From Atractiella rhizophila (taxonomy: Eukaryota): a stretch of DNA of 64,000 nucleotides. This document shows positions 1 to 25,599 of this stretch, piece after piece (position 1 is the first letter of the stretch; each line of letters begins with the position of its first letter). Both the position numbers and the translations under genes were made by a program. The stretch lies in the NCBI GenBank assembly GCA_021432655.1, contig MU271401.1, forward strand, positions 1-64,000. The letters are read 5' to 3'. The notes below the pieces were generated by a model. That model saw only the letters and a program-made list of their open reading frames with translations, did not search any database and was not told the DNA's origin.

Positions 1-323
1 TACTCTAAGGTCACCTCCACTACTCTCCGATCTATATATACAAGCGGAATACCACTGCCACAGAGTGTAGAGGAGAGTAGATGAAACATGTAAGAGAACT
101 AAAAGGGGGAAGTGATAGTGGGATTACGCGGAATTAATAAGAGGAGAGGAGAATAGGCACAAATGAGCTAAGTGGCGATGGGAGACGCAGAATGGCGACG
201 GTTCGCAGATTTGTATAGAATACAAACGGGCGAACAGGCGCCGATTCGGGGGGAACACAAATGGGCAATAGGAGATGCAATCCAGCAAACGGGCGCCGAT
301 TTGCGTAAGATGCAAACCTGACA
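1..323 (-). mobile_element. LTR of the gypsy family at 4784-5122, inverted, truncated by the window edge
   Basis: Reverse complement starts TGTCAGGTTTGCATCTTACGC and aligns with indels to 4784-5010; ends exactly at ...AAACCTGACA (323), abutting the copia LTR remnant. Confidence 0.85.
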
Positions 324-2080
324 GTCTCACATCTCATATCTTCCCGCACTTAGCCAATGCCGTCCGCTCATATATACCTCCTCTTCGTTCACTGGATTCC
401 CCATCGTCTTCCACCATCGTGAACGATTGGGAAATCCAGGTTTGTCTGCTCCTACATAGTATTTTGCATTGCTGATCGTCTTCCACCATCGTGAACGATT
501 GGGAAATCCAGATTCTATCAGGTTATGAGCCCAAACCTTCGAATCTGAGGCATCTCTCTTTCAGGTGGCAAATCAATCTTTTTCATTGTTATTTCCTGAT
601 CGGCCGACGTATCTTCTGGAGTCCGGAGCGACTACAAATCTCGTACATCTCATCTATTCGTTGTATGTCGCATAGGATGTGAATCAGGAGCAACCAAGAT
701 CACCTTCAACCTCCTCCATCTCTTCCAGACGTTTTGGAGTCCCTCCAAGGTCTCAACATCGAAGAACCAAGCACTCCCACGCTATCTACGGCCGATCTGC
801 TCAGCTCACCACATTCTTTCTTCATACGCGACAACTCTTTCTATCTTCCCATCGAAATCGACGAAGTGCCCATCATGCCTCCAGACAATATCAAGATTTT
901 GGAGAGACTCACTCGAGTGAATTGGTAGTCATAGTCAGAAGAGGCGAAAGAATGCTTGAAGACGATGATGCTTTGGGGATATATTGCGGAGAACACCAAA
1001 GGGGAAGGCCTAATGGCGCGACCGGTTAGGGAGCTTTACGAGGCGGCTGGACCGTCTCAGGCTATTCTTTTCAGCAAGGAGAATTCCGCCTGGCTGAAAG
1101 GGGATTGGGCTACCAGTGCATTCTTAAAGGCTTCGGTTGACGATGCTTTGAAAGAAGTTATTAAGGCGAAAGAGTTGGAATGGAGTGACGAAGAGAATAC
1201 CGCACATATGATCTGGAAGCTTCTTCAGTCCAAATGCCGGCTGAAGGTACCCTTCAAGCTAAAACAGCATGGTGAGCTTTCCTTTACACTACCTCCCAAC
1301 CCATCTCCTCGTCCTCGTATGTGGATTGGGCCAACTCCATTCGACAATCGTGGGTAGAGATCGAACGATATGCCGGCAAGATTATGGGACCCGACAAGAT
1401 TATCTCCTTACATCTACTTTTGATGATTCCCAAGTCTCTCAGCATGAAATGGGAGACATCATTCAAGGTTCTGCAGGAACGACATGGACATTTACATCCC
1501 AGAACCCCTTTCAAAATTGAGCACATCTCCCCTGACACCATCGTTGAAGAAATTAGCGGGATCGTTGGAAGGGAATCTCTTGCTCAAGATGGAGACAGAG
1601 CGTTTCTTATGCAACGATCTGATGGGACCGGTGGGAGTATCAACAATGTTCATCCCAGTCATTGTGGTTTCGTCGAGGCTAGTTCTAGATTCAGTGGGAC
1701 TTGAGATCACTGCAAAAACAAAGGACACTAGAAAGCTGAATGTTTCCAACTCCGTCCCGAAAAACTCGAACAAATTCCGTGCTAAGAAGGCTTCCTCATC
1801 TCTCGCCGCCAATGTTGCTGTTTCTTCGGACACGCCTATCACAGTTTCTATGCCTCCTTCCTTTCTCTCAGGATTGAACGTGCTCCCTACCAATGCCAAT
1901 TGGGGTGATAGGCATCAGGATGTCAGTGGCAGCTTTGGGACACAAGAAGTCTCTTACTTCGCCCGCTACGTTGGTGAACATCAGCTGGGTTGGAATGGGG
2001 ATATCAATGCACATTCTCTTGATATCAATGGTGCAGAGCCCGCTCATGCCCTCATTTTGCTCGACTCAGCCGTCCGACAT
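324..2080 (+). mobile_element. Degenerate Ty1/copia 5' part: LTR remnant (324-520), PBS, gag and aspartic protease remnant
   Basis: ...TATCA followed by GGTTATGAGCCC at 521-532 (copia-type primer-binding site); gag-like 'TAHMIWKLLQ'; CCHC knuckle T*DHCKNKGH*KAEC at 1699-1743 with stop codons; protease-like 'ILLDSAVRH' near 2051-2080. Confidence 0.75.
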
Positions 2081-2347
2081 GAGGTCCCCATTCCCAAAGT
2101 CGTGTCTCTATCTCCTGCCTTGTCTGTCCTCGGCGACATCGCTCTCTTCACGGCTCAAATCAAAGGTGTCTCGACTCAGGCTGTTCTAAGCCCACAGAGT
2201 TTCGGAGGGAACTCATCCACAATTTCAGAGAGGAATCGGGCAATGAGACTGTCGAAGTTGGCAACGGAGTCAAAGTACCTATCCTGGGTCACGGCGAAAT
2301 GTTCTATTCTACTCTCACCACAGACGGTTCTCCATGTGTCCTTCTTC

Positions 2348-4177
2348 TGATCTTGACAGACCACAAAAACCTTGAATATTTCAGGATGCCACAAAAGTTA
2401 AATTGGCGACAAGCGCGGTGGATCACTGAACTTGCATCTTTCAACTTCACGCTTTTACACCGTCCTGGACGAAACTCCGCAAAACCAGATGCGCTCAGTC
2501 GGTGACCAGATCACAAACCGGCGCCTTGCGACAATTTCGACGTAGTATTGCACCTAGAACGTTTTTTCAACACAGATCGTATCACCATCAACGCGACTGG
2601 GAGCGCAGTTGCGCTCACAAGACAAATGTCAGAGTTGAGTATACTGGAACATGTGAAAAAGGTACCCGAACGGGAAGAACAAGGTACCCGAACGGGAAGA
2701 ACAAGTAGTCAAAGCCTTGAGAGAGATCCTAGACGAACCAGTCGACGCAATTCGCCGACGGGAGTGGCAAGAAGTCGATGGCGCTGTCTATTTTGGTGGA
2801 AAACTCTACATTCCCTGCGACGAGGAAATTCGCCGCTCGATTTTGCAAGACCCGCACGATTCACAAATCGCCGGTCATCCAGCAGTAAAATCGCCGATGG
2901 CTCTCGTAAAAAGGTACTATTGGTGGCCAGGTGTGGCGCATTGCGTTCGCCGCTATGTCGGCGCCTGCCACACTTGCCACAGAACGAAAAACTTTCTTCT
3001 CCACCTGCCAGGTTTTTGCAACCAAATGACATTCCCATACGTCGATGGCAAATTGTCAGCATGGACTTGGTTGGACCACTCCCAGAATCTGGGGGGTTTG
3101 ACATGATTTTCGTCATAGTAGACAGACTCTCAAAACGTACCCATCTCATCCCCACCCATTCGACAATGGATGCAGAAGGCCTTGCAAGACTTTTTCGTGA
3201 TCACGTATGGAAGTTACATGGACTTTCGATGTCGCAATTTTCGATCAAGGCAAAGAGTTTGTGTCCAAATTCACATCCACGCTTTTTCGCCTATTAGGTA
3301 TCAAAGGTTCACCATTGACAGCCTATCACCCACAAAGTGATGGTCAGACTGAACGCATGAACCAAGAGGTTGAACAATATTTGCGCATTTTCTGCAACCA
3401 CCTTCAAGATAATTGGGTGGAAGGACTTCCCAACGCAGAATTTGCGCTCAACAATCGTATCAGTTTGGCGACGGGTGTAACTCCATTTTCGCTCGATTGC
3501 AGCCAACATCCCCGCATGGCCTTTGAACCCATCTCCGACGAGGACGTTCTCGCAGCGGTGCAATTCGTCGAAAAGATGCAAATCGCCGACCGGGAAGCAC
3601 AAGCAGCACTCGAGCAAGCAGCAGATCTCATGGCAAAACATTATGACAGAGAACGCACACTGGCGCCCGAATATCACGTCGGCGATTTCGTCTGGTTGAG
3701 TGCGAAAAACATCAAATCGATGAGACCTGTTAAAAAGTTAGATGACAAATGGCATGGCCTATTTCATGTTTTGCAAGTTTGGGTCTCGTCAACCTTAAAC
3801 TCGAGTTGCCATCCTCATGGAAGATACATCTAGTGTTCCATGTGGGTCTAATACAAAAAGTCAACGAAGACGACATCCCTGGCAGAGTCCAGTTGCCCAA
3901 ACCACCTCCGGAATTGGTGAATGGAATTGAAGAATGGGAAGTGGAAAAATTTGTTGATGGAAAATGGTTCGGTACCCGAAATAGAGTTTTCAAATATTGC
4001 GTTCGATACAAAGGGTATTCACCATCTGAAGACGAGTGGATCAATATCGCGGATCTAGAAAATTCACAGGATGCTATAAAAGACTATCACACTGCACATC
4101 CTCTTGCAGTTCGTCCCGATTCCATACCAAACTCCGCCAAAAATCGCCCAAATGCGCGTTCTCGTAACCTTCGATGA
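2348..4177 (+). mobile_element. Ty3/gypsy chromovirus pol remnant: RNase H end, integrase, chromodomain; frameshifted
   Basis: 'TDHKNLEYF...RQARW...[14 protein letters not shown]' (RNase H end), 'HDSQIAGHP...YWWP...CHTC' (HHCC), 'VSMDLVGPLP', 'AYHPQSDGQTERMNQ' (integrase core), 'EWEVEKFVD...YCVRYKGYSPSEDEW' (chromodomain); stops, frameshifts and a 22-bp tandem duplication at 2659-2702. Confidence 0.93.
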
Positions 4178-4196
4178 AAACGCACTGGAGGGTTTT

Positions 4197-4588
4197 CCTC
4201 ACTTTAAGGGGGTCCAATACCCCTATATGCCTTGCCGGGTGAAATCCTAGTCTTTGATACTTAGGTCAAGGCAAGGCGCCGACTTGCTCCTCAACGGACA
4301 AGTCGGCGACTTGGTCGTGGGTGAGTCCATTCGTCGCCCGTCAAAGACGAATGCTCATTGCGTTCTCGCACCATCACCAATGTCGCATTTACGAAAATTG
4401 CCCTCAATCGCGAGGTCCCCTCCCCTCACTTTAAGAGGTCCTACTCCTCTACACGCCTCGCTGGGTGAATCCCTAATCACATTGTTGAACATAGATCTAG
4501 GTGAGGCGCCGATCTGTCCCTCAACGGGCAGATCGGCGACCAGTTCGTTGGTGAGTTGTCCAGCCCGTTTTCGCAGGATGCACACTTA
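4197..4588 (+). repeat. Two diverged tandem modules (period ~227 nt) with conserved stem-loops in the gypsy 3' UTR
   Basis: Anchors CCTCACTTTAAG, GGGTGAA, AGGCGCCGA, CCTCAACGG, TCGGCGAC, GGTGAGT and GCCCGT occur in the same order at 4197-4357 and 4424-4588. Confidence 0.85.
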
Positions 4589-4783
4589 GTACACCAAAAC
4601 AACACCTGGTCAACTTTTAAAAAAAATTCCTCAAATTGCGAGGTACACAATGTCTCTTTACTCCGACAATTTCATCTCTGTCCGAGCGACAGCTGGTACT
4701 TCAGGCACTTTTCGCAAAAATTGGCAAACCTCACAAAGCAGAAGTTTCTGCTTACTGCAAGCACCACAGAAACTGGGGGGTGT

Positions 4784-5122
4784 TGTCAGGTTTGCATCTT
4801 ACGCAGATCGGCGCCCGTTCGCCACTCTGCGTCTCCCGTCGCCTATTTGCACCTACATCACCACTTAGCCCAATTGTGCCTATCCTCCTCTTATTAACTC
4901 CGCGTAATCCCACTTTTAGTTCTCTTGCATGTTTCATCTGATCTCCTCTACACTCTGTGGCAGTGTTATTCCACTTGTATATATAGATCAGAGGTGACCT
5001 TAGAGGATTCTCTAGGTTTATCTCCACTACAGGTTACTCCTCATGTCATATCATGCCCTTAGGTTTATCTCCACTACAGACACATCGCCCATTGGCGACC
5101 GCACATAGTGTCAGCCCTAACA
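4784..5122 (+). mobile_element. 3' LTR of the gypsy element (339 bp)
   Basis: TGTCAGG...CCTAACA imperfect terminal inverted repeats, preceded by a purine-rich GAAACTGGGGGG PPT-like tract; TATATATA near 4978; two further copies in the window. Confidence 0.85.
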
Positions 5123-5264
5123 GTTTCTAAGTGTTGGATATGTTCCTCCATTGATAGCAAATCACTGACGGATAGTGAATCATGTGTCTCCATATCTCCC
5201 CAGACTTCTGACATTTTGCTAACTTCTTAAAATTTGATTTTGAAGATATGAGAAAATATTCTTC

Positions 5265-5686
5265 TGTTTGAGCTGACAATATGTACAGTCGCTGATGAAC
5301 GATGTGTCTGTAGTAGAGATAAACCTAAGAGATATCATGACATGAAGTGACTAACCTATAGTAGAGATAAACCTAAGAGAATACTCTAGGGTCATCACCA
5401 CTACATCTCGATTTATATATATGTGTAGGAGCACTGCCATGAACTGTAAAGTATGTCATATGAAACATGTAAGATAACTAAATCGGGAAGGCAACAAAGG
5501 AAATAGTCAGAAATAAGTTATAAGAAGGGGAATAATATGAATGGATGTCAAGATAAAAACAGTTGTGATGCAGATTAGCAAAATGAATAGGACTACTGAG
5601 CAGCGAAGAGTACAGGAAGAGGTAAAGCGGGAACTGGTAAGAACGCTGACTAGCGAATTAGGAGAGTAAGTCATGTGACCTGGACA
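5265..5686 (-). mobile_element. Older, diverged inverted LTR related to 4784-5122
   Basis: 5265 TGTTTGAGCTGACAATATGTACAGTCGC...GATGTGTCTGTAG matches the reverse complement of 5074-5122 with many transitions; ends CCTGGACA. No TSD seen. Confidence 0.7.
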
Positions 5687-5963
5687 AGTATATTTCAATA
5701 ATGTGTACGAGCAAGCCTGAGAATGACTTGCACCAACTTTTCTGGGTTATGGAGGCATGTATCCTGTATCTCATACCTGTATATGACATCACATCATCAG
5801 AAAGTAACATGCTATAGCAACACTCCTCCACTGTCTACAGCATATATGATGAAACATGAATGGATTGCCAGAGATCCCTTGATGGATAGAGTTTTAATCG
5901 AAATATTCCTTTTCCCTTATGTCAGCTTGTTTAGTTTGCCTGAAGCTTTACCCCTACAGAAGA

Positions 5964-8900
5964 TCAATTTATATGGAGACTGTGAAGTGAAATGTACCAA
6001 AACGATCCAATAATTCCTTGCCATCTTGAAGCCTTTTTCGTAGCAGGTTCTTTTGTCACACTCATAGCTCTCTCTGCCTGTCCAATTCTGTCAAGCAAAT
6101 TATCACAGTCTTCAATGTCTGAAGCTGCACAGCATTCCATGTAAAGCCAGTGAGCCTTCTCAATTTCCTCCCTTGCTTCAGCGTACCTGGACAGTATGAA
6201 GAGTTGTTGTGCCATTGTCTCTCTACAGATGGCCTCCGTATAGCCACCCACTGTCTGACTCAAAGTGATCGCTTCCTTGTAAAGCCCAATCGCCTTTGTG
6301 AACTGAGAATCCTGAATGAAAATGGAAGCATAACTGTAAAGACAATTGAGTTGACCTCCCACGTCTTCGAGGGCTAAATAGAGCTGCTTTGCCTCTTCAA
6401 ACTGTTTCAGTGCTTCCTCATTCTTCCCACGACGCTGCTCGATCTCCCCCATGTTGCGAATGCAGTGGGCCAGGCCTTGCTGATCTCCCACCAGCAGATA
6501 CAGCTGCTTTGCCTCTTCAAACTGTTTCAGTGCTTCCTCATTCTTCCCACGATGGTGCTCAATCTCCCCATGCTGCGAATGCAGTGGGCCAGGCCTTGCC
6601 GATCTTCCACCACCAGATACAGCTGCTTTGCCTCCTCAAACTGTTTCAGTGCTTCCTCATTCTTCCCACGATGCTGCTCGATCACCCCCATGCTGTAAAT
6701 GCAGTGGGCCAGGTCTCGCCGATCTTCCACCAGCAGATACAGCTGCTTTGCCTCCTCAAACTGTTTCAGTGCTTCCTCATTCTTCCCACGATGCTGCTCG
6801 ATCACCCCCATGATGTAAATGCAGTGGGCCAGGCCTTGCCGATCTTCCACCAGCAGATACAGCTGCTTTGCCTCTTCAAACTGTTTCAGTGCTTCCTCAT
6901 TCTTCCCATGGAGCTGCTCGATCTTCCCCATGCTGCGGATGCAGTGGGCCAGGCCTTGCTGATCTTCCACCACCAGATACAGCTGCTTTGCCTCCTCAAA
7001 CTGTTTCAGTGCATCCTCATTCTTCCCACGACGCTGCTCGATCTGCCCCATGCTGTGAATGCAGTGGGCCAGGCCTTGCCGATCTTCCACCACCAGATAC
7101 AGCTGCTTTGCCTCCTCAAACTGTTTCAGGCTTCCTCATTCTTCCCATGACGCTGCTCGATCTCCCCCATGCTGTGGATGCAGTGGGCCAGGCCTCGCCG
7201 ATCTTCCACCACCAGATACAGCTGCTTTGCCTCCTCAAACTGTTTCAGTGCTTCCTCATTCTTCCCACGATGCTGCTCGATCTCCCCCATGCTGTGAATG
7301 CAGTGTGCCAGGCCACGCTGATCTTCCACCAGCAGATACAGCTGCTTTGCCTCCTCAAACTGTTTCAGTGCTTCCTCATTCTTCCCACGATGCTGCTCGA
7401 TCTCCCCCATGCTGCGGAATGCAGTGGGCCAGGCCTCGCCGATCTTCCACCACCAGATACAGCTGCTTTGCCTCCTCAAACTGTTTCAGTGCTTCCTCAT
7501 TCTTCCCACGGAGCTGCTCGATCTTCCCCATGCTGCGGATGCAGTGGGCCAGGCCTTGCCAATCTTCCACCACCACATACAGCTGCTTTGCCTCCTCGAA
7601 CTGTTTCAGTGCATCCTCATTCTTCCCACGACGCTGCTCGATCAGCCCCATGTTGTAAATGCAATGGGCCAGGCCTCGCCGATCTTCCACCACTGCATAC
7701 AGCTGCTTTGCCTCTTCAAACTGTTTCAATGCTTCCTCATTCTTCCCACGATGCTTTTCGATCTCCCCCATGTTGCGAATGCAGTGGGCCAGGCCTTGCC
7801 GATCTTCCACCAGCAGATACAGCTGCTTTGCCTCCTCAAACTGTTTCAGTGCATCCTCATCCTTCCCACGATGCTGCTTGATCTTCCCCACCCCGAGAAT
7901 GCAGTGGGCCAGGCCTTGCTGATCTCCCACCACCAGATACAGCTGCTTTGCCTCTTCAAACTGTTTCAGTGCTTCCTCATTCTTCCCACGATGGTGCTCA
8001 ATCTCCCCCATGCTGTGAATGCAGTGGGCCAGGCCTTGCTGATCTTCCACCACCACATACAGCTGCTTTGCCTCCTCAAATTGTTTCAGTGCGTCCTCAT
8101 TCTTCCCACGGAGCTGCTCGATCTCCCCCATGCTGTGAATGCAGTGGGCCAGGCCTTGCCGATCTTCCACCACTAGATACAGCTGCTTTGCCTCCTCAAA
8201 CTGTTTCAGTGCCTGTTGTGGGTTCCCTTTCTGTTGGAAACATAACCCAAGAACCCTGTTCAATTCGGCTGTGATTGCTGGAGGTGATGTAAGCTTCTTG
8301 CAGGATAAAGCACTCTGGATCAATGCCACTGAGAGGAGCCTTTGAAGATATAGAAATCTCCAAATTTTGACGATGAAATTGAATCCCATTGTTGGATCTT
8401 TGAGATGTTTGAAGGCAGCTAGAAGTACGTGTTCAAGGTTTGGAAAATCGTTGCGAAAAGTCAACAGTCCGATCCGTTCAGCATCATCTTTGAAACGTCG
8501 AAAACATTTACGAGCCTTCTCAATCAGACCTTCAGTTAACGGTTCGAGCGATAAAGTGGTGACTTTGAAAGGAGGAAGAGGACCCAACACCAAACGGTTC
8601 ATATATTCACGAATCGGGGCCAGCATGCGCAATCGTGAGGTGTGTGTAAGAGTATCATCCACATTTTCAGCAAGTCCGACTTTTAAGATTGAGGTGACGA
8701 GCACAGCAGAATCCTCTGCATGGGGAAGGCTGGAGTTATTGCCAAAGGCGATAATGTCGTCAGCCAGAAGACCATCAGGGGTCCAAGAAAGAAGGGCAAG
8801 GATAAAAGCACTGAGGTCCTCGTTCTTCTTGAGCAGAGGCGAATCGAACGAGAAGGAGATCGAAGTTGCCAGAGTGTGCGTCTCTTCGCTGTCTTCATTC

Positions 8901-10769
8901 CAGAGTACGTTCGTTTTCTTTGCCTCCCATTCACCCACCAAAACCCTTAGCTCCCTGGTGGATTCTTCATTCGCACGAAGAATGAAGAGCTTGATAGACA
9001 AGGCATGACGATCCAGCTTGGCGACAATGTCCTCGACTAGCTGGTCATCATCCTGGCGATATCCTTTTCCGCCCACGTACATATATTCAAACATACCAAG
9101 CGCGCCGACGTCGCTCAAGCCTCCAATCGCCAGTTCTTGAAATCTCACACCTTTCGAGTTCACACGCTCAACTTGATGGCCTCGATGTACTACAACGAGA
9201 ATAGAACCAGAAGGACATTGTCTGGAAAAGAAAGCCTGGAAGAATGGCTGTAGGTTATTCTTGTCAGACCGTGCGGGGGTCTCAAAATTATCGAGGATAA
9301 GGAGACACTTGTGAGTATTGAAATATTTTGCGACAGCAGTAAGCTCATCTTCGCCAGGCGGAGGAGCTAATCCAAAAACTTCCTTGCAAAGGTTGGTCGA
9401 GAGAGAGGAGAAGTCGGAGAAAGCGTCGCAGCGTGCCCAAAAAGCGAAAGTCTGCTTCCTTGCCATCCGTGGCGGTCCTGAATGCGTTTTTGATTTTGTC
9501 TGCATGAAGGACTTCCAGTGCAACGGTAGATTTGCCGTTCCCTGCGCCACCAATGATAGCAAGGTGCTTCTTGCCGGTAAGGATGAATTCTATCGCTTTC
9601 TTGACCTCCTCTTCTCTTCCGTAACAAGCCGCCGCGAGGAGGTAAAGCGACCTTCCTGTGCACTGCGACACGATCTTTATGGTCTACATAGCGGAACGTT
9701 AGCATACAATTACCAATGACGAAGAATATACCTTTCGCCAGCGATTGAGCAACGCTCAACACTTCATGCTTCATCGCTTCCATGTAAGCCATCGTACCTC
9801 CTACGGCATCATTCTTTCGCCCCACTCCTGCCACTTGAAATCTCCAAATGTATCGACCGAGAAACGATGGTAACAATGCCCCGTCCTCCGCTCTTGCATC
9901 ATCACCTTCACCTCGTTCGAAACCCTTGAGCAATCCATGACTATTGCCTCCAATGCTCGCTCAACATCATCTCGAGTGTGGCCCAACTTGATGGCAGGCG
10001 TAATGCCAGAACCAAGGGACACAAGACAGGCGATCTCAATACTGGATCCCCAAATTCGCTTCGCTTCTTCAACAGCTATCGCTGTAGGATTGTCGCGACC
10101 TACGTTAACGTAACCAGTGGAATCCATGTTGATGGGAGGAAAGAAGGGAGGACGGGCAGCGGTCGCTCTTGCAGCTTCCCAGACCTTGTACGTGGGAGCA
10201 GGGAAAAACGGAGAGGATGAAGCACCAAGAATATCGTAGGTGCGCATCTCCGTGGAAACGGCGACGTTGGCCTCGTAGGTAGAAACTACAAAAGTTTTGC
10301 ACCTATCATGCCAGGAGGCATCTTTCATAGAAAGCGATTTCGCAGAAGCGTGAGAAGAGTTCATATGCCGCTGGATGATAGCAATGAAAGTTTCTTCAAG
10401 CTTTTCCGCCGAGTAAGCGTACTCGCCACTGGAGATCGAGTTATTTTCTAGAAAAACTTTCTGTGTGATCTCTTCATATGCCGCAATGCATTGGCGAACG
10501 GTCATGCCCAGCCTCCCAAGCATAAGTGCAATCCATCCGCCAGTGGAAGTTCCACAAATGAGGTCAAATATATCGCAAGGACGGAGGTCCTCCCCCTCCG
10601 GCACATCGAGAAGTTGTGCAGCTTGAAGCATGATCTGTTCCAGCATGTATGGAGCGGAAAAGGAACGGATGCCTCCATTATCGATGCAAAGGATCCGCAA
10701 TCCCTTGGGATTCACTTTCTTGATGTTCTCGGAGACCTTAAAGATCTTGCTAGGATGATCAGTAGACAT
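5964..10769 (-). CDS. Fungal NLR-like protein: patatin-like domain + NB-ARC/STAND NTPase + TPR repeats (frameshifted in this assembly)
   Basis: Patatin motifs 'LCIDNGGIR', 'FDLICGTSTGG', 'WEAARATAA'; intron ~9684-9731; 'CYGREEEV', Walker A 'GGAGNGKST', Walker B 'LLILDNFE', 'RLRMLAPIREY'; C-terminal TPR-like 40-aa repeats. About six single-base shifts are needed to join the ORFs. Confidence 0.9.
6381..8212 (-). repeat. Tandem array of 120-bp (40-aa) TPR-coding units, 15 complete units plus a partial one
   Basis: CTGCTTTGCCTCYTCRAAYTGTTTCA recurs 16 times at ~120-bp spacing; consensus ALKQFEEAKQLYLVVEDRQGLAHCIxxMGxIEQHRGKNEE. Confidence 0.97.
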
Positions 10770-11623
10770 GGAGGCGAAGGCAATGGATTGGATCGCGTTG
10801 TTGAAGTAGACAGTTGGTGTTGGTAGTATTTATTGTGGCAGATTTGAGAGAAGAGAAGATGTGAGGTTGGATTGTTCTAGCATCAGTCACATCAGACTCG
10901 CTCCGTGAGTTACGCATGCAGATTCATCATAGATCAAGCGCCTGTGGTTGCCCTCGCGGACTTCCAATCAGCGATGTAGAGATCAAGCTCCCTAACTAAG
11001 CTGCTTTGCAGTTCAGCTCTCTAGACGGCCCTGTCACAGGTAGCACTGATATTCCTCTTAGGAATATGGAGGGAGGCTCTCTGGAACCCACTCCCACCAA
11101 CGTACGTGAAGGTAGGTAAACTTCAGGAATGCAAAATTGGGCCACCTCATCTCAAGTCTGCAATGAAAAAGTACAACAGCGGTTGAGGATATACATCGAT
11201 CCCACCTCTGCATCCTTTCCTGCACAAAATCAAGGAAAATACTGACTGTTCAGGGAGACAATCAGAACGGCCTGTCCTAATATTCCTCAGAACAATACAC
11301 TCGCCCGACACCGCGATATCGAAATGACGACTTCTTTGTTGATAAAACTGCTAGGATGCCTTTGACTCTCTTACACTGGACCAAAGGCAGCTTCTCTGCT
11401 CCTGATAAGATGGCACATAACAGGGCAACTCTGATTGGCTGCGTTTGTTTGGGTAATCTCCGCCCATTCGTGCGTGGCATATCTTGCATATCTGCACGAC
11501 CAATCCCAATCCTACAATTTCTGATTCTTATCGTTTTCAATCCTTTCTATCAGATTGGGCCCCTACTCTACCTACCCACCCCTACGCCTAACAACTTCTC
11601 GGCTCAAGTCAAAATTCTGCAAA

Positions 11624-12940
11624 ATGCCAGTTCTCACCCCAGCACCGTCACCAGCCATTCTTGCCAGCAAGTCGCTCCCAGACGAACCTCCGCTGGGATC
11701 CTGTCCCGGAGATGGACTTTGCAATGGGAAAGGAGGAGCACCGCAATGTCGGGGATGCCCAAGTTTCAACAATTCTGGACGGCTTGTTCCTGTTTCTGGA
11801 CCGGGGTCAGCAGAAAAGCGAAGTAATGGAATGCAGACGCCGGAGGGCAGTATGAGCGCTGAGGAGATGGGAGAAGACCAGTTGATGGAGGATGCTGAGG
11901 CTGGAGACAGCGTGAGTGCTTCGTCAGCCGCTGCTCCTGGAAAAGTTGCCCCGATGTGTTGTGAAAATTGTGGGACGTTCAATACTCCTCTGTGGAGGAG
12001 GGATGGAGAAGGGAGGGTCGCCTGTAATGCCTGTGGTTCGTCTTCTTTTTGATATCATTATCCAAAGCTCACGAGGTACTTTAGGTCTGTATTATAAGGT
12101 TCGCTCTCTGAGTGGTCTTAATTGAATTTGAAGTGATTGTATTGGTCGAACAGCTCCATCGCAAACATCGTCCTGTAAACATGAAACGACCGGTTATAAA
12201 ACGTCGCAAAAGAGTTCCAGCCGCCAACTCAGCCTCACAATCTCAGACCCCGAAAGTGAGCTATATTTCTCTTTCCTCGCCTCCCCGAAATTACCAAAGT
12301 GATATGCTGATGGAACATTTATCAGAAGCAGCACGCTACCTATACTCCTTACCCACCACCGCAAACGTACGCTCGCCAACAAACTTCTTCAGCACGCCTC
12401 TCCCCATCATCCACTTCGACATCATCAGAAGTTATTGATCCCTCTATCCGGAGACGCAAATCTCCTGCTGCTCAACAACTCCAACCCGAGCCTCAATTCC
12501 AACCAAAATTGCACCTCCAACCCCTCGCTCAAATCCAACCTCAAGAACGTCGTTCTCCTTCGAACACTTTGCCAGAACTGGCCGCCGTAGCTTCAGCTAT
12601 GCTGCCTTTGCATCATCAAGCAATGAACAGCAGTAATGGGATGGGAGACGATGATAAGGAGCGGTTTAAGGAAGAGCTCGAGCGTTCTATCGGAAGGGCA
12701 GAGGAGGAGAGCAGGAGGTTGAGTCGGTTCTTGGAAGAGGGTAGAGACTTGTTGAGACGCCTCAATTCGTCTAGTGGGAGTTCGGACGGCGTGGGCGGTG
12801 GAAATGGAAACGGAGAGGTGAGATTAAGCTTGAATGGGAGGAGCGGAAGTGGTAGTGGCAGCCTCTGGCCAACGTCGCCTGCTGTGGTTTGGGACGCCGG
12901 ACTCTCTCAACAGATGCAGAGAGTGGAGATGCAAAGTTGA
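11624..12940 (+). CDS. Iron-responsive GATA factor, SreA/Fep1/Urbs1/Cir1 family, single zinc finger
   Basis: Cys-rich 'CPGDGLCNGKGGAPQCRGCPSFNN', then GATA finger 'CENCGTFNTPLWRR...ACNACGLYYKLH...RPVNMKRPVIKRRKR' across three introns; C-terminal coiled coil. Confidence 0.88.
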
Positions 12941-13237
12941 TAGTTGTTGAAACGTTCGTATACACCGCCTTATTGTTCTTGTTGTTTGTCTCTCTCTTTC
13001 CTACCTCGCCTCTTTCCTCTGAAAATCGTAACCTTACCTCGCTCTGTAATCTGTTCCTTTCGTCAGTTGTCTTGGTTGTTTGCTCTTCGATATTTCTCCG
13101 AGATTCATTCATGCCTACTCATTCATATGCCGCTCATATGCTGCCCAGGAATTTGTTCATATGCACTCTGTCTTTGAAATTACCATCTCTATTTAATGCT
13201 TCACACTAGCTGCTCCATATGAATACCTCAGTAACGA

Positions 13238-15748
13238 TCAACGCTGTACGCTATTCGCCTTCGCCAACTCCACTCCCCACCTTCCCACCTCCTCCATCGC
13301 CTTCTCATCTCCGCTTCTAACTCTCTCCGCCTCCTCTCCCGGTCCAAGCGCATCAGCGACCAACTTCCACGGATCCCTTGCGCTCCCCCACCTGAGGAGT
13401 TTCTCTTTGAACCACTCCCCACTCTCTCGGTCCAACGGACTGTTATCGAAGATTTTATGAAAAAGTCTCGAAGCGATAGCGCGGTCAAAGATGTACGAAT
13501 AATAGGTAGCGCCGTATCCGACAAGATGGGAGAACTGGGTTTGGTGGTGAGTGCCCGCGGCGTGCGGGATGGGATATCGAGAGTTTTGGACGCGGGAGAA
13601 TGTAGAGGTAGAGTCGAAGGATGGGGAGAGGGGGAGGGACGAGTGGTATTCTAGGTCGAGGTCGGCGAGCGTGATTTGCCAAGTGTCCTCCAAGGCTGGG
13701 AATGTGCGATGCTGCTTTTTATAGGTTTGGAGTTTGGGGAGGGGAAGGGGTGACTGGTTGGAGAAGTGTGTGAAAAGGGAGAGGATGAGGGGAGAGGATA
13801 GAAAGTGCTCCATTAGGATCGAAGGGAGCTCGACAAAGTCTGTTGCGACCCGGGTGCCGGATGAGTTGTGGTATGGGGTTTGACCAATCATCGCTGTCGA
13901 GAATGTGCACATCAGCGTCCAGCTCAGGGATGGAGAAAGTGAGGGTACAAACAATGAATAGCATGTCCCATCTCGTGGAACAATGTCTCTACCTCTCCCC
14001 ACTTGAGCAGAACTACATTCTTTCCCTCCCTCTTAGACCTTCCGAATCCACAAACAAGCACCACAACCGGTAGCTGGTAGGTTCCCTCCTCCCCCTTCTT
14101 CTTTACGTGTTCAACATTCAATCCTCCTTCGTCTTCTGCTTCTACAGCAGATCCGGAAGAGAGATCCAGGTCCGTCCTCCTTGAACATGTCACTGTGTAG
14201 TGAGCCGGCGCAGAATTCTTCCCCTCCCTCCAAAACAGATCCAGATAGACCGTCCCAACCTTCTCATCTTTGTCATCCAACATCGAAAGCTTGAGCACAG
14301 AGGGATCCCACGTCTCCCCTAACAGAGGAGACTGGAGTTCGAAGCGCAGTCCATAAATGGATTGGAAGAGGTGAGAAAGAGCACGGAAGACGGTCCCGAG
14401 TGAAAGGTAGGCGCTGAGCTCTTCTTCGATATTTGCGTCTTTTGGTGAGGTGGTTGCGGCGAGGAATAAGTTGGTCAGGTAGTCGCGATCCCATGGGTAT
14501 ACCGGTGGAGGGGAAGAGAGGTGTTGCGTCGATTGTTTTAGTCGCTGGAGGATGGAAAGCTCTGATTTAGCTTGGGGGAGTATGGACGTGGAAATGGCAT
14601 CCAGAAAAGAGCTGACGTTCACTGGTTCGCCCAAATGGTTCTGTTAACAAAGCAAAGGAGCGGCGAAACTGGAGGCGAACCTGGTGTCTTCGCCATTTTA
14701 TCATGCAGAGTCAACTCCGCCCAATTCTCATATCCCACCAATCTTGCAACCTCGCATCTCTTTCTTAACATCTCCTCTAAAGTCTCTAAATCTTCTGGTT
14801 CTGCTTTATGGACAGCGAGGTATGCTGCCTTCCTCACTCTCTCATCATCACCATAGCGCAGCCCGTGGATTTGGCTCCCGTCCCTTCGTAGCCGCATTTT
14901 CTTCCCACCATTCCCAAGGTCCAGCTCAACTTGCGCAGATCGACGTCTGTACGGAATCTCCATGATATCTTGTCCTAAGAAAGAAATCGTGTCGGATTCT
15001 TGCACAAAGAGCTCACGCTGATGTGGGGGAAGGTGAATGCCAGACTTCTCGAAGTCTCTCAGGAATTGGAGAGCGACGGTGTAGGTGTTGAAGAGCTCCG
15101 GGTCTGCGGTGTCGGAAGAAGGGAACGGAATAGAACTGATTATCCGTTTGAGCGCCTGGCTTTCTCTTCATCAACATTTGTCTGAGGTTAAAGGAAGAGG
15201 AGAAGCAGAAGACGAACTCGATGGAGCCCAACATGGGTATTCAAAACATTCATATAGTTATGCAACTCAGCATGCGCTACTTCGCTCGCTTCCACCCATT
15301 CCTGAGAAGGATGTACGTTCTTCACGAGCTCTGCAAGGTCGATAACGCCACACAGCAGGTCTGAGACCTTATCCAGCCTCGCCACAATGGTGAAAAGCTG
15401 TTGCCTTATATCCAGAGAAGCGAGCAATGGATCTCTGGTCTGCTCCTGGAACCGTGGTGCGTGGTTGGCAGTTGAAGGGGTGTAAAGCGTGTCAAAGTCC
15501 CGACAGATGCCTTCGACGATTCCAGCTACACGTTGCCCCGTCCATCGTGCTACAGCTGGGAAATCGGCTGGCGTGCGTAAGCGTGAGTGTCCGAAAAGAC
15601 CAGTCGTGCGTGTGGGATCGATGGAAGACTTGGGAGCTGGTGATGAGCGGCTGTCGAGGATTGCAAGTAGTTCTGTGTCGGCAGCGGAGAATCTGGGAGC
15701 GGAGTGCAGAAGACGTTTGGAGGTACGGAGGAGAGGTCGAATTAGCAT
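13238..15748 (-). CDS. OCT1: Mitochondrial intermediate peptidase (M3 family)
   Basis: Presequence-like N-terminus, 'LCGVIDLAELVKNVHP', 'DFEKSGIHLP', zinc motif 'LFHEMGHAIH', 'TDFVELPSILMEHF', 'FSHLVGYGATYYSY'. Confidence 0.95.
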
Positions 15749-15921
15749 GATATACGAATATTACGATACTATCAACAGAACATCAATAACGCACAGAAGC
15801 AAGCAGCAATGGTGGTTCACAAGAAATTTGGCGTGGAGCTGTCGTGGTCACGTGTCGCCAGCCCAAGTCAAGTTCTCACAAGAAAGAATTGAAGTCCTAG
15901 CGCATGATTTGAACTAACAGT

Positions 15922-16987
15922 ATGGACCCTGAAGAGGATCTCTCAAACGTTACCTCCCCTTTCCCGGAACCGCCGTCGTACTATCTGCGCTACACGGAAG
16001 CCAACCTCTCCAAGCTCACCTCCTCGCATCCTCCAGAGCCAGACGCGCAGGGTTCGTACTCCAATGCGGATGGAGAAGACGTAACTTTTCCGCTGCATGA
16101 ACTGCAGCCGCCGAAGCAGGAGTGGATCGTGGAAGAGGGAGCGTGGGAGGTGTTTGGCGAGAGATGGCCTGTGCGCGTCCTGTCACTTCATCCCTAAGAC
16201 GTTCTCTCAACCTTTATGGAACAGATAAAGACTCAAGAGGAGACACTGGAGAGTATGGGAGTGCCACAGCTCTTCCAGAGGAAAGAGGGCACAGGTATGC
16301 TCAGACACTCTGTTGTCCCTCACCTAACTTGAAGCCATTGGGGAGCAGACAGGCGCATCATCCTCCGTTCACTTCTCAACACCCTCCTGAGGACATGGAA
16401 CGAACTCCTCTCTTCCATACTTGCAGGCCCAGGGCTTCCCCGTTCGTTTCCATCCTTCTTTGCCTTTTGTAGCTCGGCTTACGCTTGGTATGAAGCTACG
16501 ACGGATGTGCCAACCATCAATTCGTCAGACAGAGAGTTGGAACATTTAAGGATCGTAGCTATCAACATGCACCAACTTCTGAACGAATTACGTCCTGCAC
16601 AGGTGCTTCCATTCCAACCTTTCTTGCCACCTTTTCCACTCGCTGAAGAGCGTTATAATAGGCAGAACGACAACTGGAGGAGATGATGCGCTCTCAGATC
16701 GCTTCTCGACGCACAAGAATAAAAGAGCTCAAACAGTTCGGTTCCCTTTATTCATCAAGCGAGCGTTTACAACTGTCGTGTCTAGACGCCGCCTAGTCAT
16801 TGAAGCTGAACTCGAGCGATTGGAGCATTTGCTGTTTCGTCATGAAGGCGAGAAGGGAGAAGATGACGAGGTGATGCTCGATTTTGCCTCTGTTGGAAGT
16901 AGCAGGAGTGCAGCAGCGCAGAAAGTGAAGGAGAAAGAGCTCTGGGATTCACTTTTACGAATAGCGGACAACATTCCCGGTCGGTAA
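15922..16987 (+). CDS. MED7: Mediator subunit 7
   Basis: 'SPFPEPPSYY', 'WEVFGERW', 'LESMGVPQLF', 'INMHQLLNELRPAQA' in spliced exons. Confidence 0.85.
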
Positions 16988-17231
16988 CAATTGTGGAATA
17001 GCAGAGATGCTGCATGGCGGATATAAAATCGCCAACGCTATGTTACTAGGTCAGTTCGAATGTAGGAAATCGAAGGGAGGCAAGGAAGTAAATTGGAGGT
17101 GTAAATGATCAGGGCAGACCCCCATGCGTAGCACAGCAGAATAAATGTCAGAAGGGTGAACATATTATTCCAAGAGTACTACCTATGGGAATGAATGTAT
17201 CACGAATTAAAAGGACATTGATAATGTAGGT

Positions 17232-17976
17232 TCAGAGAAACTCGTCATCTGCATTGCCAGCAGGGGCGAATCGCTGGACGTCCCGCTCCTTTGCAACACG
17301 AGCCATACTAATCGCGCACTCAGCGTCATTTGCTCTGCATTTGAGGGAGAGACTAACTAGGTACGATTGATTATGTCGTCTGTAGGTTGAAGAATTGAAT
17401 GTCAGTTATGATAGCGGACGTAGAGAAAGAAGCAACGCACAAGCTTCGAGATAGCGTTGCATGCAACGATCCAGGCATCCCTAAATCCCAACCCTTAGGA
17501 TAATTAGGTATGCGAAGACAGATTGCAGACCTCTTCCGATGAGCCTAGCTTATCAGAAGGCTTCGTGACGCATTTTTGAAAACTAAATGGATCGAGGATG
17601 AGAGATACATTAGCAGAATTGGTGGTGACGAACCATTTGTGGTTCACGGCCTGGTGCCAGTTCGTGTCAAAAATACTCAATGAAATGGATAGTAGAGGAC
17701 TCACATCAATGAGTCCCTAGTCATCCAAACCTCTCAGCAAACCGAATCTTTCACGCCAAGACAGTAAAGAACCGTACCTGAGCGTTCGTCGTTGCTGCAT
17801 CCGACACATTTCTCAGTCGTTCTCAGTAAGGAGGCAGAAATTAAGTCACCAATCTGTTGAGAAATGGCCTGCTTCAGCGCATTCGCCTGAGCTTGGACAT
17901 CTGGTTTGGCGGTTGACAGTGCTGAGGTGTTACCGCTGTTGGAAGAGGAAGAGGAGCCTCTGCCGAAGAATGACAT
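17232..17976 (-). CDS. TIM13: Small Tim chaperone (twin CX3C), Tim13-like
   Basis: Spliced reading 'ALKQAISQQIATTNAQGLIDAVNHKCFQKCVTKPSDKLGSSEE.CLDRCMQRYLEA' through several microexons. Confidence 0.85.
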
Positions 17977-18935
17977 ACTATATACAGGGTCAGTAAATGT
18001 TACACAGGACTTGAGAATTTATTACTGACCTTAGGAAGTTTTGGAGAGAGAGGGAAAGAAAATGGTTCACTTTCTTTGTGCTAGGAGTTTTTTGGTTGAC
18101 GATTTGGCGGCTTGGCCTTGTTTGTACGCCACTGTCTCGTCACGCATTTCAGTGACCAGTAAGCAACAATGTTTAGGCTTGAGACTTTAGGAGAGCTGCG
18201 TGGGGTTATAATGGATGTTATAGAGAGCAAGGGATGGTGTCACTGTTACTCTTCAATTGTTCATTGAATTTTCCGCATCAAAACGCACGTATTGACATTT
18301 TGGAAGTTATCAGTATAACCAGATAATCATTTATGCTTTCGGAGGATCAGAAGGACTCTTAGCCGCTACCCCGACCGTTTCTGACTGCTTTTCGTCTTTG
18401 TGCACCTTTTCTCGCCCTGAAAAAGGAGAATAATTATGATTGTAAATCACGTGACCTTAAACAGGATGGCATACATTCTGATTCTGACTCTCGCCTCAGC
18501 TGCTCACGCCTACGTTGGTTCATGTTCCTCTTGAATCCAATAAATGTGGCGCCGGCCACTGTTTTAAGCGTTGTTAGTTATTGACAAATGGATATTTGTT
18601 AACAGGCAACGTACCTATGCAGAGACCTCCCCATCCCAAGAAGACAGATCTGAACAAGGTCCATCAGATTGACCCTACGTAGTAAGATGATACACACTTT
18701 GGATTGCTCATTGGGTCGTCCTCTTCGGCTTCAAGTTCTTGAATGGAAGAAAGACAAAGCCGCGCTAATCCGGTGAGCCGCACAGTCAAGAAACAACCTG
18801 CAGAGGAATTGGACTAACTCCATGTATCTCTAGAATAACACGCTACTGAAAAGTTATACAAGCCAACTCCAGCTTAGTGCGCCGCTTTCCCTTTCCAAAC
18901 CCCAACATCTCGACCAAATATACATCGACATCACG

Positions 18936-19755
18936 ATGCCATCGAAAGCCACGAAAACCAACGTCAAATCGAAAGGCAAAGCGGTAGTCAACGCTGCTTC
19001 CCCAGCATTGGAAGCCGTACCTCCAGATTGGCCAGCCATAAAATCCTTTGGCCATCTCGAAGCCAACGTTCTCCTTCCTCAACAAATCGTAACCATCCTT
19101 TCGCTGTTCTCTTCATCCTTATGCAAGACCTATACTGCCTTTCTCTCCACGCTGCCTTTCACGACAACTCCGGTGCGTCCAAAACGCGGAGAAGCAGTCC
19201 GCTTCAACGATAGGTTTCAGGTCCATGATGAGACCTTTGCGAGGAGATTGTGGGAGGATAGTGGTTTGAAAGAGTTCTTTGAACGAGAAGAAAATGAGGG
19301 GATTCTGGGTGACGGTGTGAAGGAGAAGGAGGTGGTAGGTCTGAATCCGAATATCAGGGTGTATCGATACGTCCCAGGCCAATTTTTCGACAAGCACTGT
19401 GAGTGTCGCCCCCTTGACATCTCATTTGGGATAACTGACCACACAGATTAAACAGATGACGATTCCAATCTCGTTACACTTACTCAACCATCTCCTCTTC
19501 GTTGTCGTACGACCTGGACCCTCCTAATTTACCTCTCCGGCACCCAGGACGGGGTGAAAGGTGGACAGACTGCGTTCTATCTCGAGAAACCTTACCCAAA
19601 AGATGAAGAGGGGAAGGATGTGATTGATATTGTGGTGGAGACAGAGAGGGGTTCGGCGCTCTTGCATAAACATGGAAAAGATTGTCTTTTCCATGAAGGC
19701 AAGGAAGTCAAAGAGGGCACAAAATGGATACTCAGGAGCGATTTTGGTTGTCTGA
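18936..19755 (+). CDS. 2-oxoglutarate/Fe(II) dioxygenase, prolyl-4-hydroxylase-like
   Basis: 'IRVYRYVPGQFFDKHYDD' (HxD across an intron), 'WTLLIYL', 'GGQTAF', 'HEGKEV', 'KWILRSD'; end assumes one extra T at 19742-19745. Confidence 0.85.
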
Positions 19756-23252: not shown

Positions 23253-23433
23253 CGCAAATCAAGCTGATTTGTAATGTTCTCGAACTCCTTTGCTGGATGG
23301 ATGCCAATGTCCTCCAGAGATTCCAACCAACTCACAGAATTAAAGTTGCTCGGATCAGGTGACTCTTTTCAGGCGTGCTATAGGGTCAGGGTCAAATCTC
23401 ACTTGTCCCAAAACGGCGAAACGACCAATTACG

Positions 23434-25396: not shown

Positions 25397-25599
25397 TTGG
25401 CTGTTGCTCGGAATCTCAGATCTTTGCTCAGAGAATCTATGCAACTTACCTGTCGATTTGAGAAAGCGACATTGGCACGATGAACAGTAAGATGACATTG
25501 CTCGACTGGTATTCAGCTATGCACAGTACAATCGAGATTTACATCTGAGAGAAGGAAGGGATGTATTAGAACGAATGACGATGAAAGTTTCGCTTCATC

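Follow-up and report, generated by a model that had tools for sequence, protein, structure and literature searches.

Highly internally conserved TPR arrays were described in fungal NLRs by Dyrka et al. (2014; PMC4986451), whose account places patatin among the N-terminal domains. A second point of reference is the HET-D/HET-E system, for which pseudogenised paralogues are described as sharing repeats with active genes (PMC12222747). A third is PLP-1 of Neurospora crassa: like its patatin-NLR relatives in Podospora and Cryphonectria, it responds to SEC-9, a SNARE (Heller et al., 2018; reviewed in PMC10197012).

In the window, meaning the whole stretch of 64,000 nucleotides analysed here, I traced a minus-strand NLR-like gene that runs from a patatin domain through a NOD and a TPR array to a C-terminal cap and is interrupted by a single intron of 48 nt and by six 1-nt frame breaks. 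The array is probably the TPR domain through which one paralogue of an expanded patatin/STAND-NTPase/TPR NLR family, in an Atractiella-like basidiomycete, senses its ligand. The closest proteins all belong to A. rhizophila: P0003 (patatin and NOD), P0002 (NOD and 40-aa TPRs), and P0001 and P0069 (40-aa TPR arrays with a similar cap). A tblastn search with P0002 and P0003 traverses frames -3, -1, -2, -1 and -3 across the gene, the parts of which are as follows.

5964..10769, minus strand: the whole NLR-like gene as traceable (ORF map, Pfam, sequence reading, tblastn of paralogues)
10107..10691, minus strand: patatin-like phospholipase domain (Pfam PF01734, alignment to patatin chains 1oxw and 9wn0)
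9684..9731, minus strand: intron of 48 nt, GT..AG, with a ctaac branch site (sequence and spliced contigs)
9528..9551, minus strand: Walker A motif or P-loop, GGAGNGKS, of the NOD (translation of ORF 9345-9683)
8330..9438, minus strand: remainder of the NOD and helical linker (35-40% identity to A. rhizophila P0002 and P0003)
8213..8329, minus strand: divergent N-terminal capping TPR (Pfam TPR_2 match at residues 442-471 in ORF 7376-9589; model helices 16-33 and 37-53)
6414..8212, minus strand: TPR array of near-identical 40-aa units, u1 to u15 (Tandem Repeats Finder, anchor spacing, unit alignment)
6294..6413, minus strand: u16, a half-degenerate unit (unit alignment)
5964..6293, minus strand: C-terminal cap with a divergent TPR or two, ending at the stop codon (Pfam TPR_7, TPR_8 and ANAPC3 matches at residues 97-160 in ORF 5964-6635)

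The N-terminal effector domain scores 59 bits with Pfam Patatin (cutoff 27.7; E 9.2e-16), and its GGxR loop and GTSTG serine motif are present and align to patatin structures. The site of the catalytic Asp (DGG, aligned to chain 9wn0) reads NVG, with N for Asp, and P0003, as its alignment reads, has A at that position. Because of these two replacements the domain would lack a conserved Ser-Asp dyad, and the lipase may be non-catalytic. The intron is supported by contigs of two public runs, X3 (2 contigs) and X4 (1), which jump precisely from 9683 to 9732. The Walker A region is matched by Pfam AAA_16, nSTAND6 and NB-ARC, each below its own cutoff, and the NOD as a whole reaches 20.7-21.7 bits with NACHT (cutoff 26.7) and 15.9 bits with NB-ARC (cutoff 23.5), neither attaining the cutoff; the NOD of P0003 likewise stays below cutoff (NACHT 23.5 bits, nSTAND1 21 bits). 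The array matches TPR_12 at E 1.1e-40 and TPR_10 at 2.7e-23, and the C-terminal cap resembles those of P0069 and P0001. The sequence-only reading had taken the array for the repeat domain of an NLR-type gene, and the Patatin, Walker A and TPR_12 evidence bears this out: the predicted architecture of patatin, P-loop STAND NTPase and TPR is of the fungal NLR type. It might be argued instead that the array serves generally as a scaffold or for protein interaction and is unconnected to non-self sensing or cell death, given that TPR arrays are common, that the NOD lies under the Pfam cutoffs and that patatin lacks the conserved Asp motif. I regard this as highly improbable, since the order of effector, NOD and repeat is that described for fungal NLRs, since highly conserved internal repeats are, in the account of Dyrka et al. 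(PMC4986451), strongly enriched in fungal NLRs, and since the family has many divergent copies, with up to 18 distinct contigs over one position in one run.

With a score of 3024, Tandem Repeats Finder delimits a single array at 6378-8212, in which a period of 120 recurs for 15.3 copies with 91% matches. The 16 occurrences of an 11-nt anchor are separated by 120 nt in 12 cases, by 119 nt in two and by 121 nt in one, and the minus-strand units, each of 120 nt or 40 aa, run from u1 at 8212-8093 to u15 at 6533-6414. Mean pairwise identity between the 15 units is 92.0% for nucleotides and 84.4% for amino acids (range 70-95%), values that lie right at the cutoff of over 85% used for the Podospora set of Dyrka et al., and 24 of the 40 amino-acid positions in each unit are invariant, in keeping with the 15 units on a near-invariant scaffold that had been claimed earlier. 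The residue lists given with that claim, for the pair following LAHCI, the residue following MG, the pair following ED and the residues that precede GKNE, were all four reproduced exactly. Every one of the 15 units is distinct in its helix-A contact signature, and in 19 of the 35 variable columns a variant is common to at least two units, which argues against consensus noise as the source of the differences. In u16 the first ~33 nt follow the repeat consensus and the remainder has diverged, a divergence that marks the edge of homogenisation. Plus-strand ORFs of 266-355 aa also cover the array; these I rejected as by-products of a stop-free repeat, every Pfam TPR match being on the minus strand.

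An AlphaFold2 single-sequence model of the cap and u1-u6 (pLDDT 92.9) is an all-helical solenoid with 17-residue helices and 3-residue loops. Foldseek places the TPR domains of LGN/Pins on top, with a TMq of 0.82-0.86 for the better-fitting entries (PDB 4wnd, 5a6c and 3ro2), and the TPR register of the units (A20, F24, A27, G8) matches the registers of Pfam TPR_1 and TPR_2. Helix A holds 70% of the amino-acid diversity, which is highest at TPR positions 5, 9 and 13. For helix A the helical variability moment is 0.50, a value reached in 539 of 20000 shuffles. The concave contact positions of TPRs, 2, 5, 9, 12 and 13 as given in PMC1261162, formed an a-priori set that accounts for 39% of the diversity, a share reached by 120 of 100000 random five-site sets. 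Thus the earlier claim that variation is clustered rather than scattered holds: it falls on one face of helix A, at canonical ligand-contact positions, with concave placement judged only from register and helical phase. The variable stripe (TPR positions 37/38, 5/6, 9 and 12/13) would correspond to the groove-lining positions of solved TPR-ligand complexes. A separate observation is that the stripe extends into an N-terminal extension of helix A. In the paralogous arrays of P0001 and P0069 the outer helix-B positions 22/23 vary too, and per-site diversity is only weakly correlated between the window array and P0001 (Spearman 0.22, p=0.17).

Does this pattern require selection? The differences between units could instead be neutral, being what mutation and gene conversion would leave in an array that is relaxed or dead, without diversifying selection or a binding code. 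Compatible with this are a pN/pS of 0.72 over the whole array and of 1.13 at the a-priori contact sites alone, a near-even spread of variable columns across codon positions (11, 10 and 14), and the broken frame of this copy. Nevertheless, the core of helix B is spared, with four variable columns, all synonymous and none non-synonymous, where 10.5 would be expected (P=0.003; the contrast of non-synonymous with synonymous columns between helix-B core and the rest of the unit gives Fisher p=0.006), and change is focused on one helical face and on a contact set defined in the literature. Neutrality therefore seems rather unlikely. At the contact sites pN is 0.23, or 2.2-2.3 times the array-wide pS of 0.102 (bootstrap range 1.35-4.5); in the rest of the unit it is 0.44-0.50 times that pS, and helix B has a pN/pS of 0.36. 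Support for positive selection is nonetheless modest. With an overall value of 0.72, with 1.13 at the a-priori sites and with 15 units it is not demonstrated, and counts of this kind are confounded by gene conversion; of the dN/dS excess looked for after the sequence-only reading, the part concerning the array as a whole is not borne out and the part concerning the contact sites survives as a suggestion.

The units are also mosaic. The four-gamete test is failed by 37 of 91 informative site pairs, consistent with recombination within the array and with the modular, recombining array proposed earlier, and the half-phase blocks u2/u3 and u14/u15 are only 2 nt apart. In the reading preferred here, that of a ligand-sensing domain, each 40-residue unit would form a helix A/helix B hairpin of the LGN/Pins type, in which the helix-B scaffold stays constant and one stripe of helix A varies from unit to unit. 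As the mosaic pattern suggests, intra-array exchange by unequal crossing-over or gene conversion would both keep the units alike and reshuffle them; the repeat-by-repeat code of the sequence-only reading stays an inference. By analogy with PLP-1, a ligand in the groove of an intact copy would free the NOD to oligomerise, upon which the N-terminal patatin-type domain would become active and bring about cell death.

The copy in the window is not intact as written. As assembled, the NLR-like gene lacks an unbroken coding sequence and carries six single-base breaks, listed here in coding order.

9819..9821, minus strand: frame break 1, one base missing (G5 to G4), just past the patatin domain (reading against P0003; one extra letter in contigs of the public runs X1-X4)
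9632..9634, minus strand: frame break 2, one extra base (reading against P0003; letter absent in X1-X4 contigs)
9439..9443, minus strand: frame break 3, a T4 to T5 expansion (reading against P0002 and P0003; run contigs)
7416..7417, minus strand: frame break 4, an extra C in u7 (unit alignment and sequence)
7129..7130, minus strand: frame break 5, a missing A at the u9/u10 border (unit alignment and sequence)
6566..6569, minus strand: frame break 6, a G5 to G4 contraction in u14 (unit alignment and sequence)

With frame break 1 as written the patatin frame ends at a stop at 9801, and because of the six indels the assembled gene is untranslatable beyond the patatin domain. The array falls into four reading frames (ORFs 7376-9589, 7126-7485, 6527-7135 and 5964-6635), and to read the 15 units as a single protein one has to step over three in-array 1-nt indels, which the sequence-only reading did not mention. 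Being out of frame, this copy cannot make a sensor as written.

I give a little better than an even chance to the indels being a real and recent inactivation of this copy. Close to even odds, on the low side, attach to their being uncorrected assembly errors, such as unpolished long-read homopolymer errors in a multi-copy family, in which case the organism carries an intact, functional NLR. Several points speak against real decay and for error. Each of the six lesions is the gain or loss of one base, three of the six fall in homopolymers of 4 bases or more (G5 to G4 twice and T4 to T5), and no stop codon made by substitution occurs in about 1580 codons, every segment staying open until the next break. 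Comparison with contigs of the public runs X1-X4 covered 8213-10900, outside the array, and the three indels testable there are absent from contigs of all four runs: the letter at 9439 is omitted by contigs of X1 (5), X2 (6), X3 (2) and X4 (1), and the spliced X4 contig, which lacks the indel, differs by a single substitution across its 154 listed bases. Furthermore, the scaffold is still under purifying selection, as the helix-B value shows; the adjoining retroelement, repetitive too, is also split over several frames; and in Podospora the loss of 1 bp from a highly conserved NLR repeat has been attributed to misassembly (PMC12222747). Against error, however, the window is not generally indel-noisy, since it holds five unbroken ORFs of 558-833 aa elsewhere and a neighbouring M3 peptidase that shifts frame only at GT..AG intervals, which are ordinary intron-like junctions. 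The window copy also carries private substitutions where all contigs concur on another letter, for example at 9791 (11 of 11 contigs, X1) and 10305 (10 of 10).

A further, distinctly unlikely proposal is that the frame-broken copy, rather than being mere debris, belongs to a stock of TPR cassettes. The stock would be that of a many-copy, lineage-specific family of Asp-less patatin NLRs of a root-associated basidiomycete, in which dead and live paralogues would swap 40-residue units with distinct helix-A signatures. If this were true, new groove specificities would be built by recombination, as with pseudogene donors in other diversity-generating systems. Whatever the state of this copy, such arrays and multi-copy families need read-level checks before the label of sensor or of pseudogene is applied.

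The genes plp-1 and sec-9 adjoin each other. Near the NLR-like gene, a scan of 53 of the 62 ORFs that reach 100 aa in 1-5964 and 10800-30000 identified no SNARE family, though small or intron-split genes could escape it. Likewise, no inverted repeats flank the gene within 1-22000, the pairs found there enclosing a retroelement remnant or forming a local hairpin; thus, a transposon-carried NLR is not seen here. A protein search at E<=1e-10 returned none of the longer protein forms (1291-3685 aa), which is weak evidence. Metagenome contigs gave 0 exact matches to the 30-nt repeat consensus, and a NOD profile scan of them gave 54 loci with only 21-30% identity over long matches, too distant to be informative.

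How, then, does this locus compare with known systems? The LGN/Pins TPR domains share the superhelix fold of the model, but their sequence identity is only 16-19% and they are animal polarity proteins without a NOD; the likeness is one of fold, not of family. Two 'TPR-like proteins' of A. rhizophila, P0069 (527 aa) and P0001 (1169 aa), have 40-aa units with the same scaffold words (AHCI..MGEIEQHRG), a similar C-terminal cap, and identities over the array of 65% and 57%, respectively; they are nevertheless paralogues at other loci whose units are fewer or more diverged than those of the window array. HET-D and HET-E of Podospora anserina, the comparison made in the sequence-only reading, are described as having highly conserved repeats, few hypervariable contact positions and repeat shuffling (PMC12222747), and to that extent the comparison stands. 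It does not extend to the type of repeat, as theirs are WD40 beta-propeller repeats accompanied by HET and NACHT domains, whereas the window gene combines TPRs with patatin; the direct precedent is the TPR arrays of Dyrka et al. (PMC4986451).

PLP-1, as reviewed in PMC10197012, shares with the window gene a patatin-like N-terminal domain, a NOD and a TPR sensor, and probably also the logic by which the sensor domain would govern oligomerisation and cell death. Unlike the PLP-1 systems, the window has no SNARE among the scanned ORFs, the patatin domain of its gene lacks the conserved Asp motif, and the family is many-copy. The arrays described by Dyrka et al. (2014; PMC4986451) resemble the present one in the near-identical C-terminal TPR units of a STAND protein, in polymorphism in the concave-face helices and in the repeat recombination proposed for them. 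Their units are mostly of 42 aa, with a minority of 34 aa, whereas that of the window is of 40 aa; the window host is a Pucciniomycotina-like basidiomycete, and its copy is out of frame. A fungal NLR design with near-identical TPR repeats that vary at binding positions is therefore already known (Dyrka et al., 2014), and the window array is a further example of it from a little-studied basidiomycete lineage. It goes slightly beyond the published description in its 40-residue unit, predicted to fold like the TPRs of LGN/Pins, and in the reach of its variable stripe into the N-terminal extension of helix A.

The NLR-like gene at 5964-10769 on the minus strand encodes, from 10769 down, a patatin-like domain (Pfam E 9.2e-16), a P-loop NTPase whose Walker A motif is GGAGNGKS, a helical linker, a divergent capping TPR, the repeat array and a C-terminal cap. 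In its predicted domains it has the effector/NOD/repeat order of fungal NLRs, whose catalogued N-terminal domains include patatin (Dyrka et al. 2014, PMC4986451). Its NLR membership is weak on two points: the NOD falls under the Pfam cutoffs (NACHT 20.7-21.7 bits against 26.7; NB-ARC 15.9 against 23.5), and the residue aligned to the catalytic Asp of the patatin domain (10107-10691) is not Asp. Alignment with chain 9wn0 places an Asn, near YVNVGRDNP, at the catalytic Asp of DGG, and by my own reading P0003, a paralogous protein of Atractiella rhizophila, carries Ala there, so that in this family the lipase head may not rely on a Ser-Asp dyad of the usual kind. Both GTSTG, the serine motif, and the GGxR loop are preserved.

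Tandem Repeats Finder reports a single strong array at 6378-8212 (period 120, 15.3 copies, 91% matches, score 3024), in which the 16 occurrences of an 11-nt anchor are spaced by 120 nt twelve times, 121 nt once and 119 nt twice. The minus strand is its coding sense; all translated pieces there match Pfam TPR families, three of them TPR_12 with E-values of 1.1e-40, 3.9e-27 and 1.2e-22. Cut in register, the array yields 15 units of 40 residues (u1 to u15), bounded as follows:

8212-8093, minus strand: u1, first unit
6533-6414, minus strand: u15, last full unit

A further unit, u16, follows the consensus over roughly its first 33 nt and diverges beyond, and the non-repetitive C-terminal cap after it ends at the stop at 5964. 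Although 24 of the 40 amino-acid positions are invariant and mean pairwise identity between units is 92.0% for DNA and 84.4% for protein, all 15 units differ from one another. The sequence-only reading had listed variable residues at four places in the unit, and all four lists match letter for letter when the units are read again. A variant is common to at least two units in 19 of the 35 variable columns, and thus the unit differences are not random consensus noise.

Where does this variation lie in the TPR fold? The register was set by A20, F24, A27 and G8 and fits the coordinates at which Pfam TPR_1/TPR_2 match; a confident single-sequence AlphaFold2 model of the cap plus u1-u6 (pLDDT 92.9, pTM 0.83) has 17-residue helices joined by 3-residue loops, and together they place helix A at positions 37-13 and helix B at 17-33. 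Helix A holds 70% of the amino-acid diversity, helix B 22% and the loops 8%, with sites 5, 9 and 13 ranking highest, followed by 37, 6, 33 and 38. Variability in helix A is phased (helical moment 0.50, equalled in 539 of 20000 shuffles), whereas no helical phase was found in helix B (9103 of 20000). According to Magliery and Regan, the variable concave-face TPR positions are 2, 5, 9, 12, 13, 33 and 34 and the ligand contacts of HOP are 2, 5, 6, 9, 12 and 13 (PMC1261162). The a-priori set 2, 5, 9, 12 and 13 carries 39% of the diversity against 12.5% expected, a share matched by 120 of 100000 random five-site sets. In the helix-B core (positions 20-31), 4 DNA columns vary where 10.5 would be expected (P=0.003), and all four are synonymous (non-synonymous versus synonymous, core versus remainder, Fisher p=0.006). 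The top PDB matches in Foldseek are LGN/Pins TPR domains complexed with partner proteins (TMq 0.82-0.86 for the better-fitting entries, sequence identity 16-19%), a likeness of fold, not of family membership.

On selection, the interpretation of the sequence-only reading is overstated. By Nei-Gojobori counts over 105 unit pairs, which gene conversion between units confounds, pS is 0.102 and pN 0.074 for the whole array, a ratio of 0.72. The ratio is 0.36 in helix B and 1.13 at the a-priori sites by themselves, the latter from very few synonymous sites. Measured against array-wide pS, pN is higher by a factor of 2.2-2.3 in the contact sets (bootstrap range 1.35-4.5), and the ratio is 0.44-0.50 in the remainder of the unit. 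Such values suit a scaffold under constraint whose contact sites are relaxed or diversifying; they fall short of proving positive selection. Within the 120-nt unit, 37 of 91 informative site pairs fail the four-gamete test, and blocks cut in half-unit phase across u2/u3 and across u14/u15 are alike in all but 2 nt; both fit recombination out of unit register, though some of the signal may come from repeated mutation at a few sites.

The earlier observation is real and its interpretation right in kind, but it overlooked that this copy is out of frame. Because of three single-base breaks inside it, the array is spread over four ORFs (7376-9589, 7126-7485, 6527-7135 and 5964-6635), and reading against the paralogues P0002 and P0003 reveals three further single-base breaks upstream; a tblastn with P0002 runs through frames -3, -1, -2, -1 and -3 in turn.

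9819-9821, minus strand: upstream break, one base absent relative to the paralogues
9684-9731, minus strand: ordinary intron, 48 nt, GT..AG
9632-9634, minus strand: upstream break, one base too many relative to the paralogues
9439-9443, minus strand: upstream break, T-run with one T too many relative to the paralogues
7416/7417, minus strand: break in u7, one C too many
7130/7129, minus strand: break at the u9/u10 border, one A absent
6566-6569, minus strand: break in u14, four G against five in other units

These six breaks may be real decay or errors of the assembly. All are 1-nt indels, and three fall in runs of 4 or more bases; the segments between them are all open, so that no stop codon was made by substitution; and the repeat scaffold still looks selected. 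In a published case, a repeat of this kind had lost 1 bp in what was judged a misassembly (PMC12222747), and the neighbouring retroelement remnant is likewise split across frames. All of this favours error, as do public reads. The non-repeat part, 8213-10900, served to find public runs, and the contigs of four of them (X1-X4) were placed on it. At all three upstream breaks the contigs are one letter off the window, always in the frame-restoring direction, dropping one at 9439 (5 contigs of X1, 6 of X2, 2 of X3, 1 of X4), dropping one at 9632-9634 and inserting one at 9819-9821; the three testable breaks are thus absent from other runs. However, five unbroken ORFs of 558-833 aa, candidate genes of which just one has a Pfam match, lie elsewhere in the window; the adjacent M3 peptidase, by my reading, shifts frame solely at GT..AG intervals of 59 and about 40 nt; and the window copy has private substitutions. 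On balance I lean slightly towards real decay, and regard assembly error as a serious contender at a little under an even chance.

The same contigs bear on the family. Two contigs of X3 and one of X4 skip the intron exactly (9683 to 9732), and therefore family members are transcribed and spliced. A 238-nt X4 contig (depth 3.72) has 1 substitution across the 154 bases listed (9732-9885) and, from equal depth in the tables, appears both spliced and free of two breaks. At 85% likeness or more, 274 pieces of X1, 305 of X2 and 133 of X3 were placed on 8213-10900, with 85-99% likeness on the patatin/NOD part in these three runs. At one position as many as 18 distinct contigs overlie the window, so that the family has many copies, summed contig depth not being equal to copy number; it is strongly expanded in the related organism or organisms. 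Every placed contig contradicts the window at several positions, for example 9791 (11/11 in X1) and 10305 (10/10), and therefore none of X1-X4 is simply its source.

The gene's neighbours are a decayed Ty3/gypsy-type element, a GATA factor, an M3 peptidase, Med7, a CDC14-like gene, GH47 and RhoGAP. A scan of 53 ORFs of 100 aa or longer, from the 62 listed in the surroundings, found no SNARE domain. The retroelement (25-4993), directly downstream of the NLR 3' end, shows matches to RNase H, integrase H2C2 and a chromodomain at 2083-4174, split over several frames, and the repeats that flank it are inverted rather than direct (25-110 with 4908-4993, 86 nt, 92%; 258-323 with 4784-4849). Between this remnant and the gene end, at 5058-5329, lies a 66-nt inverted repeat (85% complementary, 140-nt spacer). 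Farther off, an imperfect 33/60-nt tandem repeat (22511-22630, 67-80% matches) sits within a plus-strand ORF without a Pfam match (22287-23069), and at 36008-39708 two plus-strand ORFs (558 and 689 aa), also without Pfam matches, share 46 nt in different frames, which makes them a single intron-containing gene or the result of a frame break.

The nearest proteins are all from Atractiella rhizophila, as named in the source. P0069 shares 65% identity along the array and ends in a similar cap; in P0001 (57% identity) the 40-aa units number about 14 and are more diverged; P0002 joins a NOD to near-identical 40-aa units, and P0003 joins patatin to a NOD. In P0001 and P0069 sites 5, 6, 9, 37 and 38 vary as in the window, and the outer helix-B sites 22/23 vary too; per-site diversity in the window array and P0001 correlates weakly (Spearman 0.22, p=0.17). 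A protein search for longer relatives found none above 1290 aa, which is weak evidence, and scans of metagenome contigs found no close relatives. Two motifs of the NOD, L[IV]LDNFET and MLAP[IV]R, turn up again in 54 metagenome loci, with 21-30% identity over long matches, a hint of distant STAND relatives beyond this fungal lineage.

This exact phenomenon is already described by Dyrka et al. 2014 (PMC4986451): internal conservation is high in about one fifth of the TPR repeats of fungal NLRs, repeats of this sort are enriched in NLRs and polymorphic in number, and the sites in them that are polymorphic or positively selected fall on the helices of the concave TPR face. Units there are mostly 42 residues long, whereas those of the window have 40. 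Finally, PLP-1, which recognises the SNARE SEC-9, oligomerises and requires its patatin domain for cell death, provides the functional precedent for patatin/NOD/TPR proteins (PMC10197012).
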